Assembly (NCBI RefSeq): GCF_024223415.1
Contig: NZ_CP100500.1
Source: Escherichia coli
GTDB lineage: Bacteria > Pseudomonadota > Gammaproteobacteria > Enterobacterales > Enterobacteriaceae
DNA length: 64,000 nt
Reading direction: 5' to 3' (one strand)
Shown here: one piece after another, positions 3,790 to 51,102 of the stretch
How positions within the stretch are numbered: the stretch's first letter is position 1
Layout: every line of letters starts with the position of its first letter
Translations under genes and position numbers: made by a program
Notes under the pieces: model-generated
Seen by the model: only the letters and a program-made list of their open reading frames with translations
Database searches by the model: none
Told to the model about the DNA's origin: nothing

Positions 3790-4499
3790 AAATTGAATTA
3801 ACGGTGAATGGGCTGAACGTGCAAGCGCAGTACCATGATGAAGAGATAGAACGCGTGCATAAACCGTTGCTGCGTATGCTGGCGGCCTTACAGACGGTAA
3901 ATCCGCAGCGCCGAACCGTGGTTTTTCTTTGCGCTCCGCCGGGGACGGGGAAATCTACCCTAACCACCTTCTGGGAATACCTCGCGCAACAAGACCCGGA
4001 ACTGCCCGCTATTCAGACGCTGCCGATGGATGGTTTTCACCATTACAATAGCTGGCTGGATGCGCATCAATTGCGCCCCTTCAAAGGCGCACCAGATACA
4101 TTCGATGTGGCGAAACTGGCGGAAAATCTGCGCCAGGTAGTGGAAGGGGATTGTACGTGGCCGCAATACGATCGACAAAAGCATGATCCGGTTGAAGATG
4201 CGTTGCACGTTACCGCACCACTCGTCATCGTCGAAGGAAACTGGTTGTTGCTGGACGACGAGAAGTGGTGCCAGCTTGCGCAATTTTGTGATTTCTCGAT
4301 CTTTATCAACGCGCCAGCTACTGCGTTGCGGGAACGACTGGTAGGGCGCAAGCTGGCGGGAGGGGTATCGCTGGCAGATGCAGAAGCTTTTTATGACCGT
4401 ACCGACGGGCCGAATGTTCGCCGGGTGCTGGAAGAGAGTCTGCCTGCAAATTTGACTTTAATGATGACCGCTACGGGTGAATATCGTCTGGTGGATTAA
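3786..4499 (+). CDS. yggC: P-loop nucleoside/pantothenate-kinase-like protein
   Basis: 237-aa ORF with Walker A motif PPGTGKST; overlaps yggD stop. Confidence 0.85.
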   Translation: MKIELTVNGLNVQAQYHDEEIERVHKPLLRMLAALQTVNPQRRTVVFLCAPPGTGKSTLTTFWEYLAQQDPELPAIQTLPMDGFHHYNSWLDAHQLRPFKGAPDTFDVAKLAENLRQVVEGDCTWPQYDRQKHDPVEDALHVTAPLVIVEGNWLLLDDEKWCQLAQFCDFSIFINAPATALRERLVGRKLAGGVSLADAEAFYDRTDGPNVRRVLEESLPANLTLMMTATGEYRLVD

Positions 4500-5148
4500 C
4501 GTTCCTGATTAGACCATCTTCCAGTCGCACCACACGAGAGAAATGACGCCGGGTAAATGCGGCGTCATGACTGATTGCTACGACGCTCGTGCCTCGCTGG
4601 CGGCACTTCTCCAGCCAGCTTTCAAACACGCTCAACCAATTTTCGTCAAAATCCCGACTCGGCTCGTCCAGCAGCAATAGTGGCGGAGAGAGTGCTTCCA
4701 GGCAGGCGACGGCGACCATCCGTCGCTGCGCACTATGCAGATCCAACGGGTGCGCGTTGGCAGTGTCTGCTAACTGACAACATTGCAGGGCAGCATGGGT
4801 ACGTTGAGTGATTTCATCCGCCGGGCATTTTTGCAGTTTCAAACCAAATGCGATCTCGTCAGCGACGGTGCTGTGAAAAAGTTGGTTTTCCGCTTCCTGA
4901 AACAGTACGCCAATCTTTGCCGCGCGCTGGCGGTTTTTCAGGTTTTTCATCGCCTGTTGTTGCAGCATAACCGTACCGGCTGTGGGCGTAAGAAGACCTG
5001 CCATTACTCGTAACAGCGTCGATTTCCCTGCGCCATTGTCGCCGGTCAGCGCCAACCATTCACCTTGTTTGAGTTGCAGAGAAATGTCGCAAAGACAATC
5101 CGTTGCCGCGCCAGGCCAGCGATAAGATATCTGATTTAACGTTAACAT
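4471..5148 (-). CDS. ECF/ABC transporter ATPase, second subunit, degenerate signature motif
   Basis: Walker A GDNGAGKST, Walker B LLLLDEP, H-loop ISHD, but LHSAQRR in place of LSGGQ; ATG at 5148 lies 1 nt upstream of the stop of the preceding ATPase gene (ATGnTAA); 3' end overlaps yggC convergently. Confidence 0.7.
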   Translation of the reverse strand: MLTLNQISYRWPGAATDCLCDISLQLKQGEWLALTGDNGAGKSTLLRVMAGLLTPTAGTVMLQQQAMKNLKNRQRAAKIGVLFQEAENQLFHSTVADEIAFGLKLQKCPADEITQRTHAALQCCQLADTANAHPLDLHSAQRRMVAVACLEALSPPLLLLDEPSRDFDENWLSVFESWLEKCRQRGTSVVAISHDAAFTRRHFSRVVRLEDGLIRNVNPPDDIHP

Positions 5149-5825
5149 AGTGGCTGGAGCGCTCCGTTTTGCAATTGCCACGCTTGCTGGCAGTAGTTCA
5201 GGAAAGGTGTGCGATGACGTTCAAAAAGAATAATCAGCGAACCACGTTCAAACGCCCAGTGTTGTAAGCGCTGCAACAGCATTTCGCTGGCCTGCGGCGT
5301 CAGGCGGCTAAAGGCTTCATCAAGAATTAATAGCTTTGGCTGCATCGCGATGGCGCAGGCGATGACCACGCGCTGTGTCTCTCCACCGGAGAGTGTTGCC
5401 GGGTGACGATGGCGCAACGGCTGGCACTCGGTCAGAGTCAGGGCGGCATCAATCCGAGCCATAATCTCTGCTTCAGCAAGACACAGATTTTCTGGCCCAA
5501 AGGCAACTTCTTCTTCCACGCTAAAGGTACAGCCGGAGAGCTGCAAATAGGGCGATTGCTGGACGAGCTGGATGGTGGCGGATTGTTCATTAAGCGGGAG
5601 ATGCCCAATGGGCGTACCGAGGAGCGTCCCCGTGCCTGTTATCTCTCCTGGCAGAAAGTCCGGATACCAGCCCGCCATCAGCTGTGCCAGCGTACTTTTG
5701 CCACTGCCGTTGTCACCAAAGATGGCGACCATCCCCGGTTTGACATAGTGAAAGTCATAACAGAACGGAGGATGTGTTGAGTGTGTCGGGCAATAACGGA
5801 ACTGTTCTAACGTAACCATATCCAC
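5142..5825 (-). CDS. ECF/ABC transporter ATPase, first subunit
   Basis: Walker A GDNGSGKST, canonical signature LSGGETQR, Walker B LLILDEA. Confidence 0.75.
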   Translation of the reverse strand: MDMVTLEQFRYCPTHSTHPPFCYDFHYVKPGMVAIFGDNGSGKSTLAQLMAGWYPDFLPGEITGTGTLLGTPIGHLPLNEQSATIQLVQQSPYLQLSGCTFSVEEEVAFGPENLCLAEAEIMARIDAALTLTECQPLRHRHPATLSGGETQRVVIACAIAMQPKLLILDEAFSRLTPQASEMLLQRLQHWAFERGSLIILFERHRTPFLNYCQQAWQLQNGALQPLC

Positions 5826-6514
5826 GCTCCGAATTCTGTCAGCATCAGCAAGATCATGGTGTAACGCGCTACGCGTTGTAGGGTGCTATCGGCTGGTGCC
5901 CACAACGTTGTTCGTCGATTGTGGATCCGAAATGCCCGCATATCCAGCGCCGCACCACGGACAGCAAGATCGTTTAGCGCATTGTGTGTTAGCGGAATAA
6001 TTAACGCGGGCATCGCACGTAAACGCTGATACCAGCCCTCATCCAGCGGCACGCCGCGGGCACGCTGCGCTTCATGAATAATCGCTAATTGCCGTTTTAA
6101 CTGCTCAACGACCAATAACGGCCCGGCAAACAGATAAGCGACGCCTGGCGGCAGGCGAGAAGCAAACAGAGCGCGGATAAAACATTGCACGGGGACGTAC
6201 TGCATCCACAACTGTGAGGTTGAAACAATCGCCAGAATCCGCAACCAGAGCGTAATAGCATGCGTCCAACGCTCCGGCGAACGCGGCGTGCCGCTTAGCC
6301 ATTCTGTTAGCCAGCCACCGTGTACCAGCCACAGCCCGGCTCCCAGCGAGAACATCAGCCAGACGACATATTTTGCCCGCCGCCGCGTGGCCTTTAGCGC
6401 AATAAGGCAGAAAAAGGTCGCCGCGCTATAGATCGGCAAAATGGTCTGCGCGGGCAGGATAAGCGTGGTGCAGGCCGCCAATGCCCACAGTGTTAATGAG
6501 GTAAATGGATGCAT
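5807..6514 (-). CDS. ECF transporter transmembrane T component (CbiQ/EcfT-like)
   Basis: Hydrophobic 235-aa protein with Ala-Arg-Gly motif (EAQRARGVP); start ATG directly abuts stop of upstream S gene (TAAATG). Confidence 0.65.
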   Translation of the reverse strand: MHPFTSLTLWALAACTTLILPAQTILPIYSAATFFCLIALKATRRRAKYVVWLMFSLGAGLWLVHGGWLTEWLSGTPRSPERWTHAITLWLRILAIVSTSQLWMQYVPVQCFIRALFASRLPPGVAYLFAGPLLVVEQLKRQLAIIHEAQRARGVPLDEGWYQRLRAMPALIIPLTHNALNDLAVRGAALDMRAFRIHNRRTTLWAPADSTLQRVARYTMILLMLTEFGAWIWLR

Positions 6515-7093
6515 TTAGCGCACGGCAGCCATTGCCGGAAAATGGCGCGTGGTGCGAATCGGCAGCTGGCGCAGTAAAAGCCAGACAATCACCGCTGTAA
6601 GAGTTTTATCGACCAGGTTCGCGCCTATCACCGTAATCGCCACCGACTCCACCAGGTTTTGCCCCATCGAGTGCATCCAGGCAACGAACAAATCGGCTCC
6701 GCTACCGGTGACACCGCCGAACAGCGCAGTACGCAGCGGTACAGCGACGACCGTTACCGCAAGCGTAATAATCACGCCGCTGACAACGACTTTTGGCAGG
6801 GTGCGGAACCAACCCGCTCGCGCCAGCCAACCGGCGACCAGGCCGATGACCATCGCCACGGGCGCAAATGCGGCGGCGATCGGGTCGGTCAGCAATCCCC
6901 AGAGTAAATTGGTCAGTAAACCGGTCAGCATCCCGATCACCGGACCAAGCAGTACCGCGCTAATAAGTGTGCCGATGGAGTCGAGAAATATAGGTAATTT
7001 GACCATGCTGGCCAGTTGCCCGCCGATCATATTGATGGCGATAGATATAACGATTAACACCAGCGCCTGACTGGAAAAGTGGCTACGCGCCAT
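6515..7093 (-). CDS. small integral membrane protein, candidate ECF substrate-specific S component
   Basis: About 192 aa of mostly hydrophobic helices; preferred start ATG 7093 with GAGAGG Shine-Dalgarno upstream (track ORF extends to 7192); position immediately upstream of T and A genes. Confidence 0.55.
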   Translation of the reverse strand: MARSHFSSQALVLIVISIAINMIGGQLASMVKLPIFLDSIGTLISAVLLGPVIGMLTGLLTNLLWGLLTDPIAAAFAPVAMVIGLVAGWLARAGWFRTLPKVVVSGVIITLAVTVVAVPLRTALFGGVTGSGADLFVAWMHSMGQNLVESVAITVIGANLVDKTLTAVIVWLLLRQLPIRTTRHFPAMAAVR

Positions 7094-7115
7094 AAGAAAA
7101 CCTCTCTGAAAGTAG

Positions 7116-7547
7116 TTATTTAACGGGGGAAATATGCAACTCGTCGTAACCAGAAAGCGCGCAAGGTTGGCGGCTAAACGCCAGTTCCTCAAGGCTACCG
7201 ATCACCAGTTCAAGCGTGGTCCGCACGGTACAGCCGGGCATCATATGACCGCCAAGCATCGTGCCGTGTGGATCGGAAACGCAGAGATGAAGATGCTCAC
7301 CACTCTGTTCCAACGTGCCGTTTAGTGAGATCACTTCGAATGTACCGTTCAGGAGCGTGGTGCCTTCTTGCCCGGCATAGCGCAAGGCGATGTCAGTCAG
7401 GCTACCGGTACAGCCTGCAATCCAGGCGGCATGAAGTTGCTGCTGCTGTGCAAAAGCGTGTAGCTGGGAAAAAACTTCCTGCCCGGGGAGGAGGCGCAGT
7501 GCGTAAAAGCGTGCGGAGGAAGAATATGGGTAGGGCAATGTCATCAT
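7116..7547 (-). CDS. small soluble protein, possibly DUF296/PPC-domain family
   Basis: 143-aa ORF, first gene of the minus-strand operon; family assignment from memory of sequence character only. Confidence 0.45.
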   Translation of the reverse strand: MMTLPYPYSSSARFYALRLLPGQEVFSQLHAFAQQQQLHAAWIAGCTGSLTDIALRYAGQEGTTLLNGTFEVISLNGTLEQSGEHLHLCVSDPHGTMLGGHMMPGCTVRTTLELVIGSLEELAFSRQPCALSGYDELHISPVK

Positions 7548-7918
7548 TGGAGTACTCCGAAACTCGGACGTATTGCGGATAATATCGACGCTGCATCAGT
7601 CATATTCTGATATAAGTCAGGGTTTGTGACGGCACAACGAAAAGATTTTGCTACGCTTATTCGTGATTCTGCAAAGTGGAATAAATTCCACAGGGGCGGG
7701 GCTGAAAACGTGACGTAAGTCAGATAATTGTCTTCTTTGACTGGACAATCATTCCTTTTATTCCACGTTTCGCTTATCCTAGCTGAAGCGTTTCAGTCGA
7801 TTAAATGTTCGACAATTAACCAATCAGTCGCAGTTTGCGACAGGTAAGGTTTCCCCGGACGATTTGCTGGATTACTCTGTCTGGCAAATTTGCTCAGGGA
7901 AAACCTTGCAGGAGATCT

Positions 7919-11509: not shown

Positions 11510-11610
11510 GCCTGATGCGCTACGCTTATCAGGCCTACACGTATCCTGCAATATATTGAATTCGCAGGTTTTTGTAGGCCGGATAAGGCGTTCACGCCGC
11601 ATCCGGCATG
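11510..11610. repeat. BIME: two REP palindromic units in opposite orientation
   Basis: gcctgatgcgctacgcttatcaggcctac and gtaggccggataaggcgttcacgccgcatccggcatg. Confidence 0.8.
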
Positions 11611-11803: not shown

Positions 11804-12679
<876 letters not shown>

Positions 12680-12688
12680 TCATGTGAA

Positions 12689-12711
12689 GCGCCCATGAAA
12701 TTCATGGGCGC
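12689..12711. terminator. hairpin gcgcccatg-aaatt-catgggcgc between convergent mscS and downstream gene
   Basis: Perfect 9-bp inverted repeat; no strong T tract on either side. Confidence 0.4.
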
Positions 12712-12720
12712 ACTACCAAT

Positions 12721-13764
12721 TTAACGCATTGTTTCATCAAGTATATTGGCAACTTTTTGCATGACTTCCCCGGCATTATCCACGCCTTCAGTTTTTTGCT
12801 GTTCTACCCACTGCGTTTGCTCTTGCTGATAACCAATCGCTTTCTGCCAGGCGTCCAGCTCTGATTTTTTCAAATAGCGAACCTGTGCACCTTCCTGCTC
12901 AAGCGTTTTTACCATGCTGATCAGGTTGTTATCTAATGCCTTGCCCAGCGCTTTCTCGGTTGTAATGGCCGCTCGTTGAATAGCCTCACGATCTCTGTTA
13001 TCAAGGTTTTCCCACGTTTGTTTATTCATTACCAACAGATAAACATGACCAAGCCAGAGCGAAGGGGAGAGCAACACATTCGGCGCAGCACGTTCAGCAT
13101 GGATGTCATATCCGCTATCAAGATTGACCATTAAGCCATCGAGTTGTCCGTCGCGGAGTGCTGTCGTAATTTGCTCATTCCACGGTAAGGTTACGGTTTT
13201 TGCCCCCGTATGAGTTAAATAAGCCCGGTGCCAGAAACTGGCTGTTCGCCAGGTGGTTCCCTGAAGTGCAGTCAATTTATCAATGGGCCTGGTAGAGAAA
13301 AAGCCTACCGGGTAGCCAAGGAAAAACTGTAAATTCACGATATTGTTACGCTCAAGTTCAGCGTTAAACTCGGGAATTTCCGCATATACGCGACGAAAGA
13401 ATTCTACCTGACTGGCTCCATGATCCGGGCCAATAGCAAAGCTCTTGAAGATTTGATGAAGCGGTAATTGTTTCGCTGTGTATTCCGGTACCACTATACC
13501 CATATCAGCTTTGCTACCATCACTTATTGTCGTCAGAGCGTCATAGCTGATGGCGGTTTCACCGTTCCAGTGTGGTTCGATTTTCAAACGCCCCTGCGAC
13601 TCTTTTTCAATTTCTGCAAAAAATATCTCTTTAATTATTTGTGTACGCATTCCCCCGTAGGGTTCATGGTCTGTATAACGAAGAATTTTTTCAGCGGCAA
13701 CGTTGTGGGAAGATATCAGAAGTAATCCTGATACCAGAGAAAGTAAAAAGTGTTTGAATGTCAT
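12721..13764 (-). CDS. secreted DctP-like (TRAP-type) solute-binding protein, orphan
   Basis: Signal-peptide-like N-terminus MTFKHFLLSLVSGLLLISSHNVAA when started at ATG 13764 (track ORF starts 13806); FFAEIEKESQGRLKIEPHWNG resembles the conserved N-terminal region of DctP-family binding proteins as I recall it; no permease genes adjacent. Confidence 0.55.
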   Translation of the reverse strand: MTFKHFLLSLVSGLLLISSHNVAAEKILRYTDHEPYGGMRTQIIKEIFFAEIEKESQGRLKIEPHWNGETAISYDALTTISDGSKADMGIVVPEYTAKQLPLHQIFKSFAIGPDHGASQVEFFRRVYAEIPEFNAELERNNIVNLQFFLGYPVGFFSTRPIDKLTALQGTTWRTASFWHRAYLTHTGAKTVTLPWNEQITTALRDGQLDGLMVNLDSGYDIHAERAAPNVLLSPSLWLGHVYLLVMNKQTWENLDNRDREAIQRAAITTEKALGKALDNNLISMVKTLEQEGAQVRYLKKSELDAWQKAIGYQQEQTQWVEQQKTEGVDNAGEVMQKVANILDETMR

Positions 13765-13818
13765 CTCAGTTCCATCTGTAATTTTATTGGTCGTCATTAA
13801 TATCAAAAACCGTGAACT

Positions 13819-14748
13819 TTAACAACTAAAATCGAACTTCATATTTTTAAAGTCCAGCCACGCATTGCCAGTACCAAAATTATACCCGCCGAAGTATTCT
13901 TCAAATTCAATATAAAAAGGTGACATTCCATCTGGTATAGATTGAAATGGAACCATTGAACCACCGAGATGATCGGGTTGATGTGCACTATGCCACTGGT
14001 GAGTTTCACATTTACTCTTTCCCTCTGCATCTTTAGAAAAATAACGAATGGACTGATATTCCGTATTATTTCTTTCTGTGGGGCTAATTCCCGCATTAGG
14101 ATCAAAAGCGCGCGGCTTACATGAAATCGCCAGATTGAAAGCCAGCGACTGCTCAGGAATGGTGCCCATTTTACGGTATACAAAATTGCTTTCAGGCGTA
14201 TCTTTTGGTCTGACGCTTGCCTGAAAATAACTAAACGCACTGCCGGTGGTCATCCATTCTGGTGTATCTTGCTGGTTGCGATAGTGATTAGGTATAAGTT
14301 CAGGCGGTTCACAAAATGGGCCGTTGAACTCTTGCTGGGTGAGTAAAATCACCGCATAAGAACAACCTAATATATCTTCCATCCGAAATAGCCGTGGATG
14401 TCGTTGCTTTTCTGCCAGCCAGAAAACATAAAGGTCTGGATCTTCGGGGGGGGTGCAGGACTCGAAACTCTCAAACACATCCAATATTTCTTCTGTACAT
14501 GGTGTTCTGCCATCGTTGTGCTCGGGCGCAACAGCAAAGAAAGATAACGCGACAATCTCTGGCCCATAAATCCGATAATCTTCTGGCAACAACAGGGTAA
14601 ATCCATGATTCAATGGGAAACCATTATTTGGATCCAGCGGCCACTGTTCGGGCGTTATGCCTGGCGGTAGGCCAAAGCACCAACCTTGTTGGCGCGGTAT
14701 ATTTTCGCGAATAGGATGGGGCAAGAGGGTAAGATCATAAGCATGCAT
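13819..14748 (-). CDS. hypothetical cytoplasmic protein, 309 aa, unknown function
   Basis: ATG at 14748 preceded by AAGGA Shine-Dalgarno; no signal peptide or transmembrane segment evident; hand-counted 60-nt stretches give roughly 37-40% GC versus about 50% in neighbouring genes. Confidence 0.6.
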   Translation of the reverse strand: MHAYDLTLLPHPIRENIPRQQGWCFGLPPGITPEQWPLDPNNGFPLNHGFTLLLPEDYRIYGPEIVALSFFAVAPEHNDGRTPCTEEILDVFESFESCTPPEDPDLYVFWLAEKQRHPRLFRMEDILGCSYAVILLTQQEFNGPFCEPPELIPNHYRNQQDTPEWMTTGSAFSYFQASVRPKDTPESNFVYRKMGTIPEQSLAFNLAISCKPRAFDPNAGISPTERNNTEYQSIRYFSKDAEGKSKCETHQWHSAHQPDHLGGSMVPFQSIPDGMSPFYIEFEEYFGGYNFGTGNAWLDFKNMKFDFSC

Positions 14749-14759
14749 TGTGTGAGTCC

Positions 14760-14951
14760 TTTATAAAGCGAGGCCGTAATGGCCGTAGCACGATTCCTGT
14801 GAGCGATATTGTTATCCAAAAAATAGCCACGCATCCTGACTGTTCGTTTTTTTATTAATATTATTAATATGCTATTAAAAATATCCATTTCCGCTAATGA
14901 TGCTCACACGCTATAGTCTGCAAATCAGATAATTAGCTCGGAATAAATTAC
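14760..14951 (+). promoter_or_regulatory. argO upstream control region (expected ArgP/Lrp-regulated promoter)
   Basis: AT-rich intergenic stretch upstream of the argO GTG start; individual sites not resolved. Confidence 0.4.
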
Positions 14952-20774: not shown

Positions 20775-22911
20775 GATGCTGGCTTATCAGATTCAGTACG
20801 TCGCGCACACTGTCGAGCATAGGTGTACCTGGACCATAAATCGCCGCCACGCCGCGCTCTTGCAGGAAGGCGTAATCCTGCGGTGGAATGACGCCACCGG
20901 CGACTACGCAGATATCTTCGCGTCCCCATTTTTTCAGCGCTTCGACCAGTTCCGGGATCAGCGTTTTATGACCGGCAGCCAGTGAGGATGCGCCCACTAC
21001 GTGAACGTCATTTTCTACTGCCAGGCGGGCGATCTCTTCAGGTGTAGAGAACATCGGGCTTAAATCTACGTCGAAACCGAGATCGGAATAGGCGCTGGCG
21101 ATCACTTTCGCGCCGCGATCGTGCCCATCCTGGCCCATTTTGGCGATCAGAATGCGCGGGCGACGACCATTGTCGGCAAGGAACTGCTCCGTTTGCGCAA
21201 CAATGGCATCGAACTCGGAGGCCGATTTCTCAGATTGATGATAGCTTTGCGCAATCACGCCGGTAACACACTGGCTTGGCACCAGATAACGGTCGAAAGC
21301 GGCTTCCAGCGCATCGGAAATTTCACCCAGGGTGGCGCGAACGCGAGCGGCATTAACAGCGGCAGCCAGCAGGTTTTCGTTATGCTGTGCGGCGTGAGTC
21401 AGGGCGTTCAACGCGGCGGTTACGGCGGCATTATCACGGGTGGCGCGAATGCGTTCCAGCGAAGCAATTTGCTCGTTACGCACCATCACGTTGTCGATCT
21501 CAAGTACATCGGTTTCGTCTTCGTGATCCAGTTTGTACTTGTTGACACCAACGATGACACGTTTGCCCTGGTCGATAAGCGACTGTTCGCGCGCTGAGGC
21601 CTCTTCGATCATTCGTTTTGGCAGACCTGCTTCGATCGCTTTCGCCATGCCACCGGCTTCGTCGATCTGTTGGATAATAGCTCTGGCTTGTTTGACGATT
21701 TGATCGGTCAGCGACTCAATGTAATAGGATCCGGCCAGTGGATCGACGGTGCGGCAGAGTTCTGATTCTTCCTGGATGATGATCTGGGTGTTGCGGGCAA
21801 TGCGTGCTGAGAAATCGGTAGGCAAACCAAGCGCTTCGTCAAAGGCGTTGGTATGCAGTGACTGAGTACCGCCCAGCGTCGCAGCCAGTGCTTCAATGGT
21901 GGTGCGGATAACGTTGTTATACGGATCCTGTTCAGTCAGGCTCCAGCCTGAGGTCTGGCAGTGGGTACGCAGCGCCAGTGATTTCGGGTCCTGTGCGCCA
22001 AATCCACTGACCGCTTCGCTCCATAAATAACGTGCCGCACGCAACATGGCGACGTTCATAAACAGATCCATGCCGATGCCGAAGAAGAACGACAGGCGAG
22101 GAGCGAAGTCATCAATTTTCAGTCCGGCAGAGATTGCTGCTTTGATGTACTCAATCCCATCAGCGAGCGTAAATGCTACCTGCTGCACGCAGTTGGCACC
22201 CGCTTCACCCATGTGGTAACCGCTGATACTGATGGTATTAAATCGCGGCATGTTGCCGGAACACCAGGCGATGATGTCGGCGATAATGCGCATTGACGGT
22301 TTTGGCGGGTAAATATAGGTGTTGCGGCAGAGGTACTCTTTGAGGATATCGTTCTGAATGGTGCCGGTCAGTTTATCAGGTGTAACACCTTGCTCTTCCG
22401 CGGCGACGATATAAAACGCCAGTACTGGTAGCACTGCGCCATTCATGGTCATCGAAACCGACATTTTATCCAGCGGGATCTGGTCGAACAGGACTTTCAT
22501 ATCTTCCACGGTGTCGATAGCGACGCCCGCTTTGCCGACGTCGCCCGCCACGAGCGGGTTATCGGAGTCGTAGCCTCGGTGGGTGGCAAGGTCAAACGCA
22601 ACGGAAAGACCTTTTTGCCCGGCGGCCAGGTTACGGCGATAAAAAGCGTTGGACTCTTTTGCTGTTGAAAAACCAGCATACTGACGGATGGTCCACGGTT
22701 GGGCGGTATACATAGTGGCACGCGGGCCACGAACGTAGGGCGGCAAACCTGGAAGGGTACCTGTCACCTCCAGATTATCGAGATCGGCTTCGGTATACAG
22801 CGGCTTGATGGCGATCCCTTCCGCGGTTTGCTGAACCAGCGAGTCGACAGTTTTCTCCCGACGGCTCAATTCCTTGTTGGCAAGCTGTTGCCACTCCTGC
22901 ACGTTAGACAT
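20767..22911 (-). CDS. scpA: methylmalonyl-CoA mutase
   Basis: Start at [10 protein letters not shown], 714 aa; C-terminal B12-binding domain. Confidence 0.9.
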
Positions 22912-26764: not shown

Positions 26765-26905
26765 TAAAGCCCTCACCGAAGCGAGGGCTTGAAGGAGAAG
26801 GGTTATGATGCGACTTGTCATCATACTGATTGTACTGTTACTCATAAGTTTCCCAGCTTATTAACAGTCAGTCTCAGGGGAGGAGTCATCCTCCCTTACC
26901 CTTAC
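26765..26905 (-). ncRNA. sibC: Sib antitoxin sRNA antisense to ibsC (ends approximate)
   Basis: Minus-strand sigma70-like promoter TTGACA (26940-26935), 18-nt spacer, TAATTT (26916-26911) downstream of the ibsC stop; known ibs/sib architecture. Confidence 0.55.
26805..26864 (+). CDS. ibsC: type I toxin, Ibs-family hydrophobic peptide (19 aa)
   Basis: atgatgcgacttgtcatcatactgattgtactgttactcataagtttcccagcttattaa encodes MMRLVIILIVLLLISFPAY; GAAGGAGAAG Shine-Dalgarno upstream; below the length cutoff of the ORF track. Confidence 0.75.
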   Translation: MMRLVIILIVLLLISFPAY

Positions 26906-26964
26906 TCACTAAATTAGGTTAAAGAATCAACGATGTCAATCAGGGCGATGCAGGTGTGTCGCCC

Positions 26965-27585: not shown

Positions 27586-27771
27586 AGGGAATCTCCGAGA
27601 TGCCGCCGCAGGCTGTAACCCTTGAACCCTTGGTTCAAGGTGAATGTGTCGTCGCAGTTTTAAGGCTTCTCGGACGGACCGAGCATGCTCACCAACCGCG
27701 GAGCGCCACATTCTTGTGGTATGAAATATCGGCTCAGGGGACTGGCCCGCTTGCGAACATCTCAGAGAAAT
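27586..27771 (-). ncRNA. ssrS: 6S RNA
   Basis: Reverse complement of AUUUCUCUGAGAUGUUCGCAAGCGGGCCAGUCCCCUGAGCC...GGCAUCUCGGAGAUUCCCU matches over the whole length. Confidence 0.9.
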
Positions 27772-37631: not shown

Positions 37632-37704
37632 GCTTGTTAATAAAGTGCGCTTTGTGTGTCGGATGAAGCGTAAATATAAAATCCTGGAGTTCAATATATG
37701 ACAG

Positions 37705-37740
37705 GAGCGCCAGGCCTGATGAGCGGGGCGCATCAGGCAC
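37705..37740. repeat. REP-like palindrome between convergent gcvP and bglA
   Basis: gccaggcctgatgagcggggcgcatcaggc. Confidence 0.5.
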
Positions 37741-37749
37741 ATCGGGTAA

Positions 37750-40397: not shown

Positions 40398-40927
40398 TGA
40401 ACTGCACCCCAAATGTTGGACATAATCTGACATCTGAAGGTGCAGTTTATGAAACATTCATTTGAAGTAAAACTTGCCGCTGTAAATCATTACCTGGCCG
40501 GTCATGCAGGCATCATTTCTACGGCAAAACTCTTTCAACTTTCTCACACCAGCCTCTCACACTGGATTAATCTTTTTCTTCTTCACGGTCCTCAGGCACT
40601 GGATTGCAGACACAAGCGTAGCTATTCTCCTGAAGATAAACTTTGCGTGGTTCTTTATGCTCTCGGGCATTCTGAGTCTCTACCCCGGGTAGCTGCCCGG
40701 TTTAACATTCCCAGCCACAACATGGTTAAAAACTGGATAAAAGGCTACCGCAAATCTGGTAATGAGGCCTTTATCAGGCGCAGGAAGGAGAAAAGCATGA
40801 CCCGTTCTGATGATACCCATGAAAACGAGGCAAACATGACGCCGGAAGAGATGAAGAATGAGCTGCGTTATCTTCGCGCAGAAAATGCATATCTGAAAGC
40901 CATGCAGGAGCATCTCCTGGAAAAAAA

Positions 40928-41829
<902 letters not shown>

Positions 41830-46061: not shown

Positions 46062-47795
46062 GTGAAACAACAGATACAACTTCGTCGCCGTGAAGTCGAT
46101 GAAACGGCAGACTTGCCCGCTGAATTGCCTCCCTTGCTGCGCCGTTTATACGCCAGCCGGGGAGTACGCAGTGCGCAAGAACTGGAACGCAGTGTTAAAG
46201 GTATGCTGTCCTGGCAGCAACTGAGCGGTGTCGAAAAGGCCGTTGAGATCCTTTACAACGCCTTTCGCGAAGGAACGCGGATTATTGTGGTCGGTGATTT
46301 CGACGCCGACGGTGCCACCAGCACGGCTCTAAGCGTGCTGGCGATGCGCTCGCTTGGTTGCAGCGATATCGACTACCTGGTACCAAACCGTTTCGAAGAC
46401 GGTTACGGCTTAAGCCCGGAAGTGGTCGATCAGGCCCATGCCCGTGGCGCGCAGTTAATTGTCACGGTGGATAACGGTATTTCCTCCCATGCGGGGGTTG
46501 AGCACGCTCGCTCGTTGGGCATCCCGGTTATTGTTACCGATCACCATTTGCCAGGCGACACATTACCCGCGGCGGAAGCGATCATTAACCCTAACTTGCG
46601 CGACTGTAATTTCCCGTCGAAATCACTGGCAGGCGTGGGTGTGGCGTTTTATCTGATGCTGGCGCTGCGCACCTTTTTGCGCGATCAGGGCTGGTTTGAT
46701 GAGCGTAACATCGCAATTCCTAACCTGGCAGAACTGCTGGATCTGGTCGCGCTGGGGACAGTGGCGGACGTCGTGCCGCTGGACGCTAATAATCGCATTC
46801 TGACCTGGCAGGGGATGAGTCGCATCCGAGCCGGAAAGTGCCGTCCAGGGATTAAAGCGCTGCTTGAAGTGGCAAACCGTGATGCACAAAAACTCGCCGC
46901 CAGCGATTTAGGTTTTGCGCTGGGGCCACGTCTCAATGCTGCCGGACGACTGGACGATATGTCCGTCGGTGTGGCGCTCTTGCTGTGCGACAACATCGGC
47001 GAAGCGCGCGTGCTGGCAAATGAACTCGATGCGCTAAACCAGACGCGAAAAGAGATCGAACAAGGAATGCAGGTTGAAGCCCTGACCCTGTGCGAGAAAC
47101 TGGAGCGCAGCCGTGACACGCTACCCGGCGGGCTGGCAATGTATCACCCCGAATGGCATCAGGGGGTTGTCGGTATTCTGGCTTCCCGTATTAAAGAGCG
47201 TTTTCACCGTCCGGTTATCGCCTTTGCGCCCGCGGGTGATGGTACGCTGAAAGGTTCTGGTCGCTCCATTCAGGGGCTGCATATGCGTGATGCGCTGGAG
47301 CGATTAGACACACTCTACCCTGGCATGATGCTGAAGTTTGGCGGTCATGCGATGGCGGCGGGTTTGTCGCTGGAAGAGGATAAATTCGAACTCTTTCAAC
47401 AACGGTTTGGCGAACTGGTTACTGAGTGGCTGGACCCTTCGCTATTGCAAGGCGAAGTGGTGTCAGACGGTCCGTTAAGTCCAGCCGAAATGACCATGGA
47501 AGTGGCGCAGCTGCTGCGCGATGCTGGCCCGTGGGGGCAGATGTTCCCGGAGCCGCTGTTTGATGGTCATTTCCGTCTGCTGCAACAGCGGCTGGTGGGT
47601 GAACGTCATTTGAAAGTCATGGTCGAACCGGTCGGCGGCGGTCCGCTGCTGGATGGTATTGCTTTTAATGTCGATACCGCCCTCTGGCCGGATAACGGCG
47701 TGCGCGAAGTGCAACTGGCTTACAAGCTCGATATCAACGAGTTTCGCGGCAACCGCAGCCTGCAAATTATCATCGACAATATCTGGCCAATTTAG
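46062..47795 (+). CDS. recJ: single-strand DNA-specific exonuclease RecJ
   Basis: 577 aa, DHH motifs (VGDFDADG, TDHH). Confidence 0.95.
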   Translation: MKQQIQLRRREVDETADLPAELPPLLRRLYASRGVRSAQELERSVKGMLSWQQLSGVEKAVEILYNAFREGTRIIVVGDFDADGATSTALSVLAMRSLGCSDIDYLVPNRFEDGYGLSPEVVDQAHARGAQLIVTVDNGISSHAGVEHARSLGIPVIVTDHHLPGDTLPAAEAIINPNLRDCNFPSKSLAGVGVAFYLMLALRTFLRDQGWFDERNIAIPNLAELLDLVALGTVADVVPLDANNRILTWQGMSRIRAGKCRPGIKALLEVANRDAQKLAASDLGFALGPRLNAAGRLDDMSVGVALLLCDNIGEARVLANELDALNQTRKEIEQGMQVEALTLCEKLERSRDTLPGGLAMYHPEWHQGVVGILASRIKERFHRPVIAFAPAGDGTLKGSGRSIQGLHMRDALERLDTLYPGMMLKFGGHAMAAGLSLEEDKFELFQQRFGELVTEWLDPSLLQGEVVSDGPLSPAEMTMEVAQLLRDAGPWGQMFPEPLFDGHFRLLQQRLVGERHLKVMVEPVGGGPLLDGIAFNVDTALWPDNGVREVQLAYKLDINEFRGNRSLQIIIDNIWPI

Positions 47796-47885
47796 CGTCA
47801 TCTTCTCTATAAAAAAGAGCGTGGATTGGGTACAATCCCGCTCTTATCACCGCATTTTGACTAGCTCAATAAAAGAAATCAGACC

Positions 47886-48984
47886 ATGTTTGAAATTAAT
47901 CCGGTAAATAATCGCATTCAGGACCTCACGGAACGCTCCGACGTTCTTAGGGGGTATCTTTGACTACGACGCCAAGAAAGAGCGTCTGGAAGAAGTAAAC
48001 GCCGAGCTGGAACAGCCGGATGTCTGGAACGAACCCGAACGCGCACAGGCGCTGGGTAAAGAGCGTTCCTCCCTCGAAGCCGTTGTCGACACCCTCGACC
48101 AAATGAAACAGGGGCTGGAAGATGTTTCTGGTCTGCTGGAACTGGCTGTAGAAGCTGACGACGAAGAAACCTTTAACGAAGCCGTTGCTGAACTCGACGC
48201 CCTGGAAGAAAAACTGGCGCAGCTTGAGTTCCGCCGTATGTTCTCTGGCGAATATGACAGCGCCGACTGCTACCTCGATATTCAGGCGGGGTCTGGCGGT
48301 ACGGAAGCACAGGACTGGGCGAGCATGCTTGAGCGTATGTATCTGCGCTGGGCAGAATCGCGTGGTTTCAAAACTGAAATCATCGAAGAGTCGGAAGGTG
48401 AAGTGGCGGGTATTAAATCCGTGACGATCAAAATCTCCGGCGATTACGCTTACGGCTGGCTGCGTACAGAAACTGGTGTTCACCGCCTGGTGCGTAAGAG
48501 CCCGTTTGACTCCGGCGGTCGTCGCCATACGTCGTTCAGTTCCGCGTTTGTTTACCCGGAAGTCGATGACGATATCGATATCGAAATCAACCCGGCGGAT
48601 CTGCGCATTGACGTTTATCGCGCGTCCGGCGCGGGCGGTCAGCACGTTAACCGTACCGAATCTGCGGTGCGTATTACTCACATCCCAACCGGGATCGTGA
48701 CCCAGTGCCAGAACGACCGTTCCCAGCACAAGAACAAAGACCAGGCCATGAAGCAGATGAAAGCGAAGCTTTATGAACTGGAGATGCAGAAGAAAAATGC
48801 CGAGAAACAGGCGATGGAAGATAACAAATCCGACATCGGCTGGGGCAGCCAGATTCGTTCTTATGTCCTTGATGACTCCCGCATTAAAGATCTGCGCACC
48901 GGGGTAGAAACCCGCAACACGCAGGCCGTGCTGGACGGCAGCCTGGATCAATTTATCGAAGCAAGTTTGAAAGCAGGGTTATGA
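47886..48984 (+). CDS. prfB: peptide chain release factor 2, made by programmed +1 frameshift
   Basis: ATG 47886, 25 codons, then CUU UGA C slip site at 47958-47964 preceded by AGGGGG; downstream frame continues to 48984. Confidence 0.95.
47949..47964 (+). promoter_or_regulatory. prfB autoregulatory +1 frameshift site
   Basis: agggggtatctttgac read directly. Confidence 0.9.
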
Positions 48985-48993
48985 GGAACCAAC

Positions 48994-50511
48994 ATGTCTG
49001 AACAACACGCACAGGGCGCTGACGCGGTAGTCGATCTTAACAATGAACTGAAAACGCGTCGTGAGAAGCTGGCGAACCTGCGCGAGCAGGGGATTGCCTT
49101 CCCGAACGATTTCCGTCGCGATCATACCTCTGACCAATTGCACGCAGAATTCGACGGTAAAGAGAACGAAGAACTGGAAGCGCTGAACATCGAAGTCGCC
49201 GTTGCTGGCCGCATGATGACCCGTCGTATTATGGGTAAAGCGTCTTTCGTTACCCTGCAGGACGTTGGCGGTCGCATTCAGCTGTACGTTGCCCGTGACG
49301 ATCTGCCGGAAGGCGTTTACAACGAGCAGTTCAAAAAATGGGACCTCGGCGACATCCTCGGCGCGAAAGGTAAACTGTTCAAAACCAAAACCGGCGAACT
49401 GTCTATCCACTGTACCGAGCTGCGTCTGCTGACCAAAGCACTGCGTCCGCTGCCTGATAAATTCCACGGCTTGCAGGATCAGGAAGCGCGCTATCGTCAG
49501 CGTTATTTGGATCTCATCTCTAACGATGAATCCCGTAACACCTTTAAAGTGCGCTCGCAGATCCTCTCTGGTATTCGCCAGTTCATGGTGAACCGCGGCT
49601 TTATGGAAGTTGAAACGCCGATGATGCAGGTGATCCCAGGCGGTGCCGCTGCGCGTCCGTTTATCACCCACCATAACGCGCTGGATCTCGACATGTACCT
49701 GCGTATCGCGCCGGAACTGTACCTCAAGCGTCTGGTGGTCGGTGGCTTCGAGCGTGTATTCGAAATCAACCGTAACTTCCGTAACGAAGGTATCTCCGTA
49801 CGTCATAACCCAGAGTTCACCATGATGGAACTCTACATGGCTTACGCAGATTACAAAGATCTGATCGAGCTGACCGAATCGCTGTTCCGTACTCTGGCAC
49901 AGGATATTCTCGGTAAGACGGAAGTGACCTACGGCGACGTGACGCTGGACTTCGGTAAACCGTTCGAAAAACTGACCATGCGAGAAGCGATCAAGAAATA
50001 TCGCCCGGAAACCGACATGGCGGATCTGGATAACTTCGACTCTGCGAAAGCGATTGCTGAATCTATCGGTATCCACGTTGAGAAGAGCTGGGGTCTGGGC
50101 CGTATCGTTACCGAGATCTTCGAAGAAGTGGCAGAAGCACATCTGATTCAGCCGACCTTCATTACTGAATATCCGGCAGAAGTTTCTCCGCTGGCGCGTC
50201 GTAACGACATTAACCCGGAAATCACAGACCGCTTTGAGTTCTTCATTGGTGGTCGTGAAATCGGTAACGGCTTTAGCGAGCTGAATGACGCGGAAGATCA
50301 GGCGCAGCGCTTCCTGGATCAGGTTGCCGCGAAAGATGCAGGTGACGACGAAGCGATGTTCTACGATGAAGATTACGTTACCGCACTGGAACATGGCTTA
50401 CCGCCGACAGCAGGTCTAGGGATTGGCATCGACCGTATGGTAATGCTGTTCACCAACAGCCATACCATCCGCGACGTTATTCTGTTCCCGGCGATGCGTC
50501 CGGTGAAATAA
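48994..50511 (+). CDS. lysS: lysyl-tRNA synthetase
   Basis: 505 aa, [20 protein letters not shown]. Confidence 0.95.
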
Positions 50512-50531
50512 GCATTACGTTATGCTCACAA

Positions 50532-50556
50532 CCCCGGCAAATGTCGGGGTTTTTTA
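50532..50556 (+). terminator. lysS rho-independent terminator; T tract overlaps the idi stop codon
   Basis: ccccg-gcaaatgt-cgggg hairpin plus T6. Confidence 0.7.
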
Positions 50557-51102
50557 TTTAAGCTGGGTAAATGCAGATAATCGTATTCTGGCTTCGCGAT
50601 TTGTCGCCTGCATCACCATCCACGGACTGAACGCCCACGGCGTGGCATCAATACCGCGTAATACATCAGCTAAATCACACCATTGATAATCCATCACTTC
50701 ATCATCGTTGATCTGTAACGCACTGGTGGTGCGTGCGGCAAATACCGGACACACTTCATGTTCCACAATGCCATTCGGATCGGTGGCGCGATAGCGAAAG
50801 TCAGGATAGATAGATTCAGGAGGCGTAATTTCCACGCCAAGCTCATAACGGCAACGGCGGATCACCGCGTCTTCGTTGCTTTCTCCTAGTTGTGGGTGCC
50901 CACAAACCGAGTTAGTCCACACGCCAGGCCATGCTTTTTTGCTCAGAGCGCGACGGGTAACTAATAATTGTCCTTTGGCATTAAACAGCCAACTGGAGAA
51001 CGCGAGATGTAAGCGGGTGTCTGCCGTGTGTGCGGCATACTTTTCCAGCGTACCCGTGGGAACTCCCTGTGCATTCAATAAAATGACGTGTTCCGTTTGC
51101 AT
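50554..51102 (-). CDS. idi: isopentenyl-diphosphate delta-isomerase (Nudix)
   Basis: 182 aa; synteny. Confidence 0.9.

Follow-up and report, generated by a model that had tools for sequence, protein, structure and literature searches.

The plus-strand segment 47886-48984 of the Escherichia coli DNA analysed here (a stretch of 64,000 nucleotides, referred to throughout as the window) is almost certainly the prfB gene encoding RF2, and positions 47949-47964 within it are, with the same near certainty, its canonical autoregulatory +1 programmed frameshift site. Nothing in the sequence counts against this reading. The data presented below document directly each sequence element of the site, the phase and spacing of these elements, the absence of stops in the +1 frame, what the product is, and the near-invariance of the site across E. 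coli. The gene and its frameshift signal are composed of the following features, listed together with the adjacent gene downstream.

47886..47960, plus strand: prfB ORF1, zero frame, codons 1-25, the last of which is the shift codon CTT; identical to K-12 MG1655.
47949..47954, plus strand: internal Shine-Dalgarno-like AGGGGG, with CTT located 3 nt and TGA 6 nt downstream.
47955..47957, plus strand: spacer and E-site codon TAT (Tyr24); the 3-nt spacing is that of the conserved motif of PMC12421855.
47958..47961, plus strand: slippery run CTT_T, on which peptidyl-tRNA-Leu would re-pair from CUU to UUU (role from the literature).
47958-47960, plus strand: shift codon CTT (Leu25).
47961..47964, plus strand: stop codon TGA (codon 26), in frame and specific to RF2, with C as the next base, which makes up the weak termination context UGAC (role from the literature).
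47962..48984, plus strand: prfB ORF2, +1 frame, from GAC (Asp26) to Leu365, followed by the TGA stop.
48994..50511, plus strand: lysS (505 aa), given for context and not part of the frameshift signal.

The 16-mer AGGGGGTATCTTTGAC lies at 47949-47964 on the plus strand and is parsed as AGGGGG-TAT-CTT-TGA-C. With codons counted from ATG 47886, AGG GGG corresponds to codons 22-23, TAT to codon 24, CTT to codon 25 and TGA to codon 26. The preliminary description had reported an intact classical prfB site at this position, and its assignment of AGGGGG and CTT TGA C is correct to the base and in phase; it had named a sense codon in place of the UGA as the observation that would speak against it, and codon 26 is TGA. 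The 16-mer is unique in the 64 kb window even when up to two mismatches are permitted, with 0.02 occurrences expected from dinucleotide-preserving shuffles. The attributes that define a prfB autoregulatory +1 site are all present, namely an RF2 host gene, an early UGA, an overlapping CUU_U, AGGGGG with a 3-nt gap, the UGAC context and an open +1 frame.

Pairing of AGGGGG with the 3' end of 16S rRNA is predicted to yield a duplex of -12.6 kcal/mol, and the strongest computed anti-SD pairing in the whole prfB mRNA falls in the 10-nt windows covering this element. RNA folding of 47940-48060 gives -39.3 kcal/mol, a z-score of -2.08; 7 of 200 shuffles were equally stable. This weak signal offers no convincing additional structure and is assigned no role, the published frameshift mechanism requiring none. 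A scan of the whole window with Rfam at the gathering score returned no family at the prfB site, a result that is informative only if Rfam contains such a family. Only one CTTTGA site besides that of prfB is preceded by an SD-like element, at 22338 (GGCAGAGGTACT CTTTGAGG). This site has neither the G-run nor the spacing, nor the C, and was judged to have arisen by chance.

The zero frame from ATG 47886 encodes a 25-aa peptide that ends at the TGA at 47961-47963, and it contains 21 stops between 47961 and 48990, the next one past UGA26 being at 48057. The +1 frame is free of stops from 47908 to the terminal TGA at 48982-48984, with 340 codons open from GAC 47962. Before 48200 it offers a single start codon, ATG 48103, and there is no ATG, GTG or TTG in this frame between 47962 and 48103. 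Joining 47886-47960 to 47962-48984 yields a protein of 365 aa with the motifs SPF at residues 205-207 and GGQ at 250-252; translation with a +1 shift at CTT, which the preliminary description had proposed as a check, thus gives a full-length RF2, one residue different from that of K-12. The joined product matches the NCBIfam model TIGR00020 (prfB), where the cut-off is 370, with a score of 525.9 bits in one stretch spanning residues 12-362, and none of the RF1 models reaches its cut-off. Pfam assigns PCRF to residues 31-219 and RF-1 to residues 228-337. Residues 1-365 align with residues 1-365 of E. coli RF2 in PDB 1gqe, and many ribosome-bound RF2 chains also align. As indicated by the single TIGR00020 stretch and the alignments to RF2 structures, homology is unbroken across the junction between residues 25 and 26, and this continuity is direct evidence, at the level of sequence, that both frames are read as one protein.

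A mechanical ORF lister splits the gene into a 25-aa ORF (47886..47963) and a 293-aa ORF (48103..48984), bearing out an earlier caution that naive ORF calling would do so. For annotation, prfB must be called as join (47886..47960, 47962..48984), as otherwise it will be split or flagged as a pseudogene. A further ORF of 334 aa with a TTG start lies antisense to prfB on the minus strand (47947..48951) and covers nearly all of it. The most likely reading is that it is a shadow ORF opposite a highly conserved coding sequence.

The lysS gene starts 9 nt past the prfB stop, and a scan for promoters and terminators over 47600-50700 identified a plausible terminator-like hairpin with a T-run after lysS, at 50530-50561. 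A simple sigma-70 scan of the recJ-prfB spacer found no consensus promoter, and its hits were fewer than those in shuffled sequence; as K-12 has the very same spacer, this carries little weight.

The frameshift site is near-invariant across E. coli. The prfB region is present once in 5,425 of 5,426 complete genomes, and the 32-nt segment 47935-47966, which contains the site, occurs without any change in 5,416 of the 5,425 that have the region. A 61-nt query is matched exactly in 4,410 genomes. Four variant genomes were sampled, with changes at 47967 (synonymous, TAC>TAT), 47971 and 48036, and the 16-mer is intact in all four.

That prfB is unreadable as a single ORF is what would be expected of a pseudogene produced by an inactivating frameshift mutation, or of a sequencing error. 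However, the same interruption is present base-for-base in K-12 and in the 5,416 of 5,425 complete genomes noted above, and it is accompanied by the full stimulatory motif of SD-like element, 3-nt spacer, CTTT, TGA and C. RF2 is, moreover, the only factor that reads UGA, and the +1 frame is intact for its 340 codons and retains the SPF and GGQ motifs; we regard inactivation or error as exceedingly improbable. The context of the stop raises a different prospect, as UGA followed by C is known to be leaky (PMC12421855), and UGA26 could be decoded in frame by readthrough or as selenocysteine with no +1 shift taking place. The zero frame nevertheless stops again at 48057, with 20 more stops after it, and the product would be a peptide of ~57 aa with no release-factor domains, leaving this option with a vanishingly small probability.

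The 293-aa ORF listed from ATG 48103 would suit an arrangement with two products and no frameshift, in which the 25-aa peptide is made alongside an N-terminally truncated RF2 that is initiated independently in the +1 frame, at ATG 48103 for example. Such initiation has no ATG, GTG or TTG at its disposal between 47962 and 48103, and a product begun at 48103 would be missing residues 1-72, a part of the protein for which RF2 profiles and solved structures give alignments. The zero-frame residues 1-25 also belong to the alignment with 1gqe, which pairs residues 1-365 with 1-365, and independent initiation is accordingly given a negligible probability. The favoured reading is the programmed +1 frameshift that fuses the two frames into RF2.

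The elements reported for RF2 frameshifting are an SD-like AGGGGG, CTTT 3 nucleotides downstream, TGA, and then a C that weakens termination (PMC12421855). Experiments on K-12, whose sequence here is identical, have established both the +1 shift and the RF2 feedback (as summarised in PMC12421855 and PMC5373646), and it is from this published work that we infer slippage and feedback in the window. After translation of 25 codons, peptidyl-tRNA-Leu would occupy CUU in the P site with UGA in the A site, where the C following UGA would make it a poor stop. When RF2 is plentiful, termination is expected at UGA26 with release of the 25-aa peptide; when it is scarce, the ribosome would pause at UGA26. 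AGGGGG would pair with the 3' end of 16S rRNA, and in the accepted mechanism this SD:anti-SD pairing, together with release of the E-site tRNA, favours slippage (PMC12421855). The tRNA-Leu would then slip from CUU to UUU, and GAC would be read as codon 26 to give the full-length 365-aa RF2. As RF2 would terminate at UGA26 and the frameshift would occur when it is scarce, RF2 is predicted to limit its own synthesis.

A small number of E. coli genomes carry prfB alleles that differ at the site. AGGGG replaces AGGGGG in three of the 5,425 complete assemblies (51008369SK1, BH100 substr. MG2014 and O145 RM8995-C1; loci L010:19952-21049, L011:19952-21049 and L012:19952-21049), the affected spot being equivalent to 47949-47954 of the window, and in six more assemblies the 32-mer shows a single difference of another kind. 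Loss of one G from the G5 run places prfB in frame and removes UGA26, and the product (WP_105166511.1) is annotated without a join. It is encoded by the same gene, with the same length of 365 aa and the same Ala246 as in the window, and differs only at residues 24-25 (Y24I/L25F). This allele needs no frameshift, whereas the window, with its G5 run complete, does need one. The three in-frame assemblies have 63-149 pairwise differences over the 6-kb xerD-lysS stretch and therefore represent separate lineages, and no pseudogene is flagged within 40 kb around prfB in any of the three.

Either these in-frame alleles are genuine and autoregulation has been lost recurrently, or they stem from sequencing errors in the homopolymer. 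Evolution experiments with Pseudomonas fluorescens have yielded frame-restoring single-nucleotide deletions as compensatory mutations (PMC13245932). If the E. coli alleles are real, natural E. coli would repeatedly lose RF2 feedback by a single-base deletion like that in P. fluorescens. That a single mutation separates the site from losing autoregulation, and that this step is actually taken in nature, is a tentative suggestion that we consider possible and rather unlikely. It concerns relatives of the strain described here; in the window itself the site is intact.

The window is collinear with MG1655 from 3,078,474 to 3,020,167, in reverse orientation and with 97-99% identity, and several segments distinguish the two. 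On the minus strand at 4431-7709, between yggC and epd, a 3.3-kb block stands in place of ~145 bp of K-12. Two ABC ATPases are encoded in it, along with a weak CbiQ-like transmembrane component, the S component of an ECF transporter and a protein with a PCC domain (PF03479), and the block looks like an ECF-type transporter operon. A 2.2-kb block on the same strand at 12657-14873, between mscS and argO, replaces ~70 bp of K-12, and codes for a 361-aa solute-binding protein of the DctP family (TRAP type) and for a protein of 309 aa without a Pfam match. Between gcvP and bglA, 117 bp (37633-37749) replace ~1 kb of K-12 that contains ygfF (SDR oxidoreductase). Rfam matches above the gathering score are to 6S RNA (ssrS; 27588-27771), the SibC antitoxin RNA (26789-26939, overlapping ibsC) and the sRNA ES036/CssrF (11531-11573), all on the minus strand and all expected residents of this chromosomal region.

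An insertion sequence, IS1397 (IS3 family), is present between trhA and ygfZ at 40398-41829 on the plus strand (1,432 bp) and is absent from K-12 at this location. The copy lies inside a REP-like palindrome (gcctgataagacgcg ... cgcatcaggc), and the element occurs, complete or in part, in 3,496 of the 5,426 E. coli genomes. Its orfA (40440-40970) contains an in-phase heptamer A_AAA_AAG at 40922-40928, at which a -1 shift produces OrfAB, a transposase of 452 aa that has rve domains. The heptamer is the second programmed-frameshift (recoding) signal in the window.

Alignment with K-12 prfB, a check named in the preliminary description, shows that the 16-nt site is base-for-base that of MG1655 (b2891, NP_417367.1), with the same Leu25 CUU, the same UGA26 and the same length of 365 aa. 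The genes are found in a shared neighbourhood, xerD-dsbC-recJ-prfB-lysS-idi. The two strains share the first 588 nt of prfB and the preceding 150 nt without a difference, and the 13 nucleotide substitutions in the 1099 nt of the gene all lie beyond position 588, in the 3' half. One of these, at window position 48621 in prfB codon 246 (GCC here, ACC in K-12), accounts for the single amino-acid difference from K-12 RF2, with Ala here and Thr in K-12 at residue 246. The earlier statement that RF2 is produced as in K-12 thus holds for the cis site, which is identical, but not for the protein.

Thr246 is a peculiarity of K-12 with reduced termination activity, Ala or Ser being canonical at this residue (PMC5373646), and the Ala246 codon indicates that the window derives from a non-K-12 E. 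coli with a more active release factor. When MG1655 is given the Ala246 (B-type) allele, apparent prfB frameshifting falls from ~28% to ~21% by ribosome-profiling estimates (PMC5373646), and a ~40% lower RF2 level had previously been reported for this allele (in PMC5373646). Given that the strain encodes the fully active Ala246 RF2 and not the Thr246 form, it probably stands somewhat below K-12 in steady-state frameshifting and in RF2 level, with a correspondingly lower set point of the feedback. Residue 246 therefore bears on how far K-12 measurements of termination and frameshifting can be transferred to the source strain.

DNA 100% identical to 47700-49100 of the window occurs in several RefSeq chromosomes, where prfB is annotated between recJ and lysS as a two-piece join with the remark "programmed frameshift" (WP_001701073.1), and no difference was detected between these records and the window. 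The feature is thus already known in exactly this form; it is an instance of ordinary textbook +1 programmed frameshifting and biologically nothing new. When compared with the survey of prfB motifs in >12,000 genomes (PMC12421855), the window has every element of the consensus, AGGGGG, the 3-nt spacer, CTTT, TGA and C, with no difference, and its site is the type example of the bacterial prfB frameshift motif.
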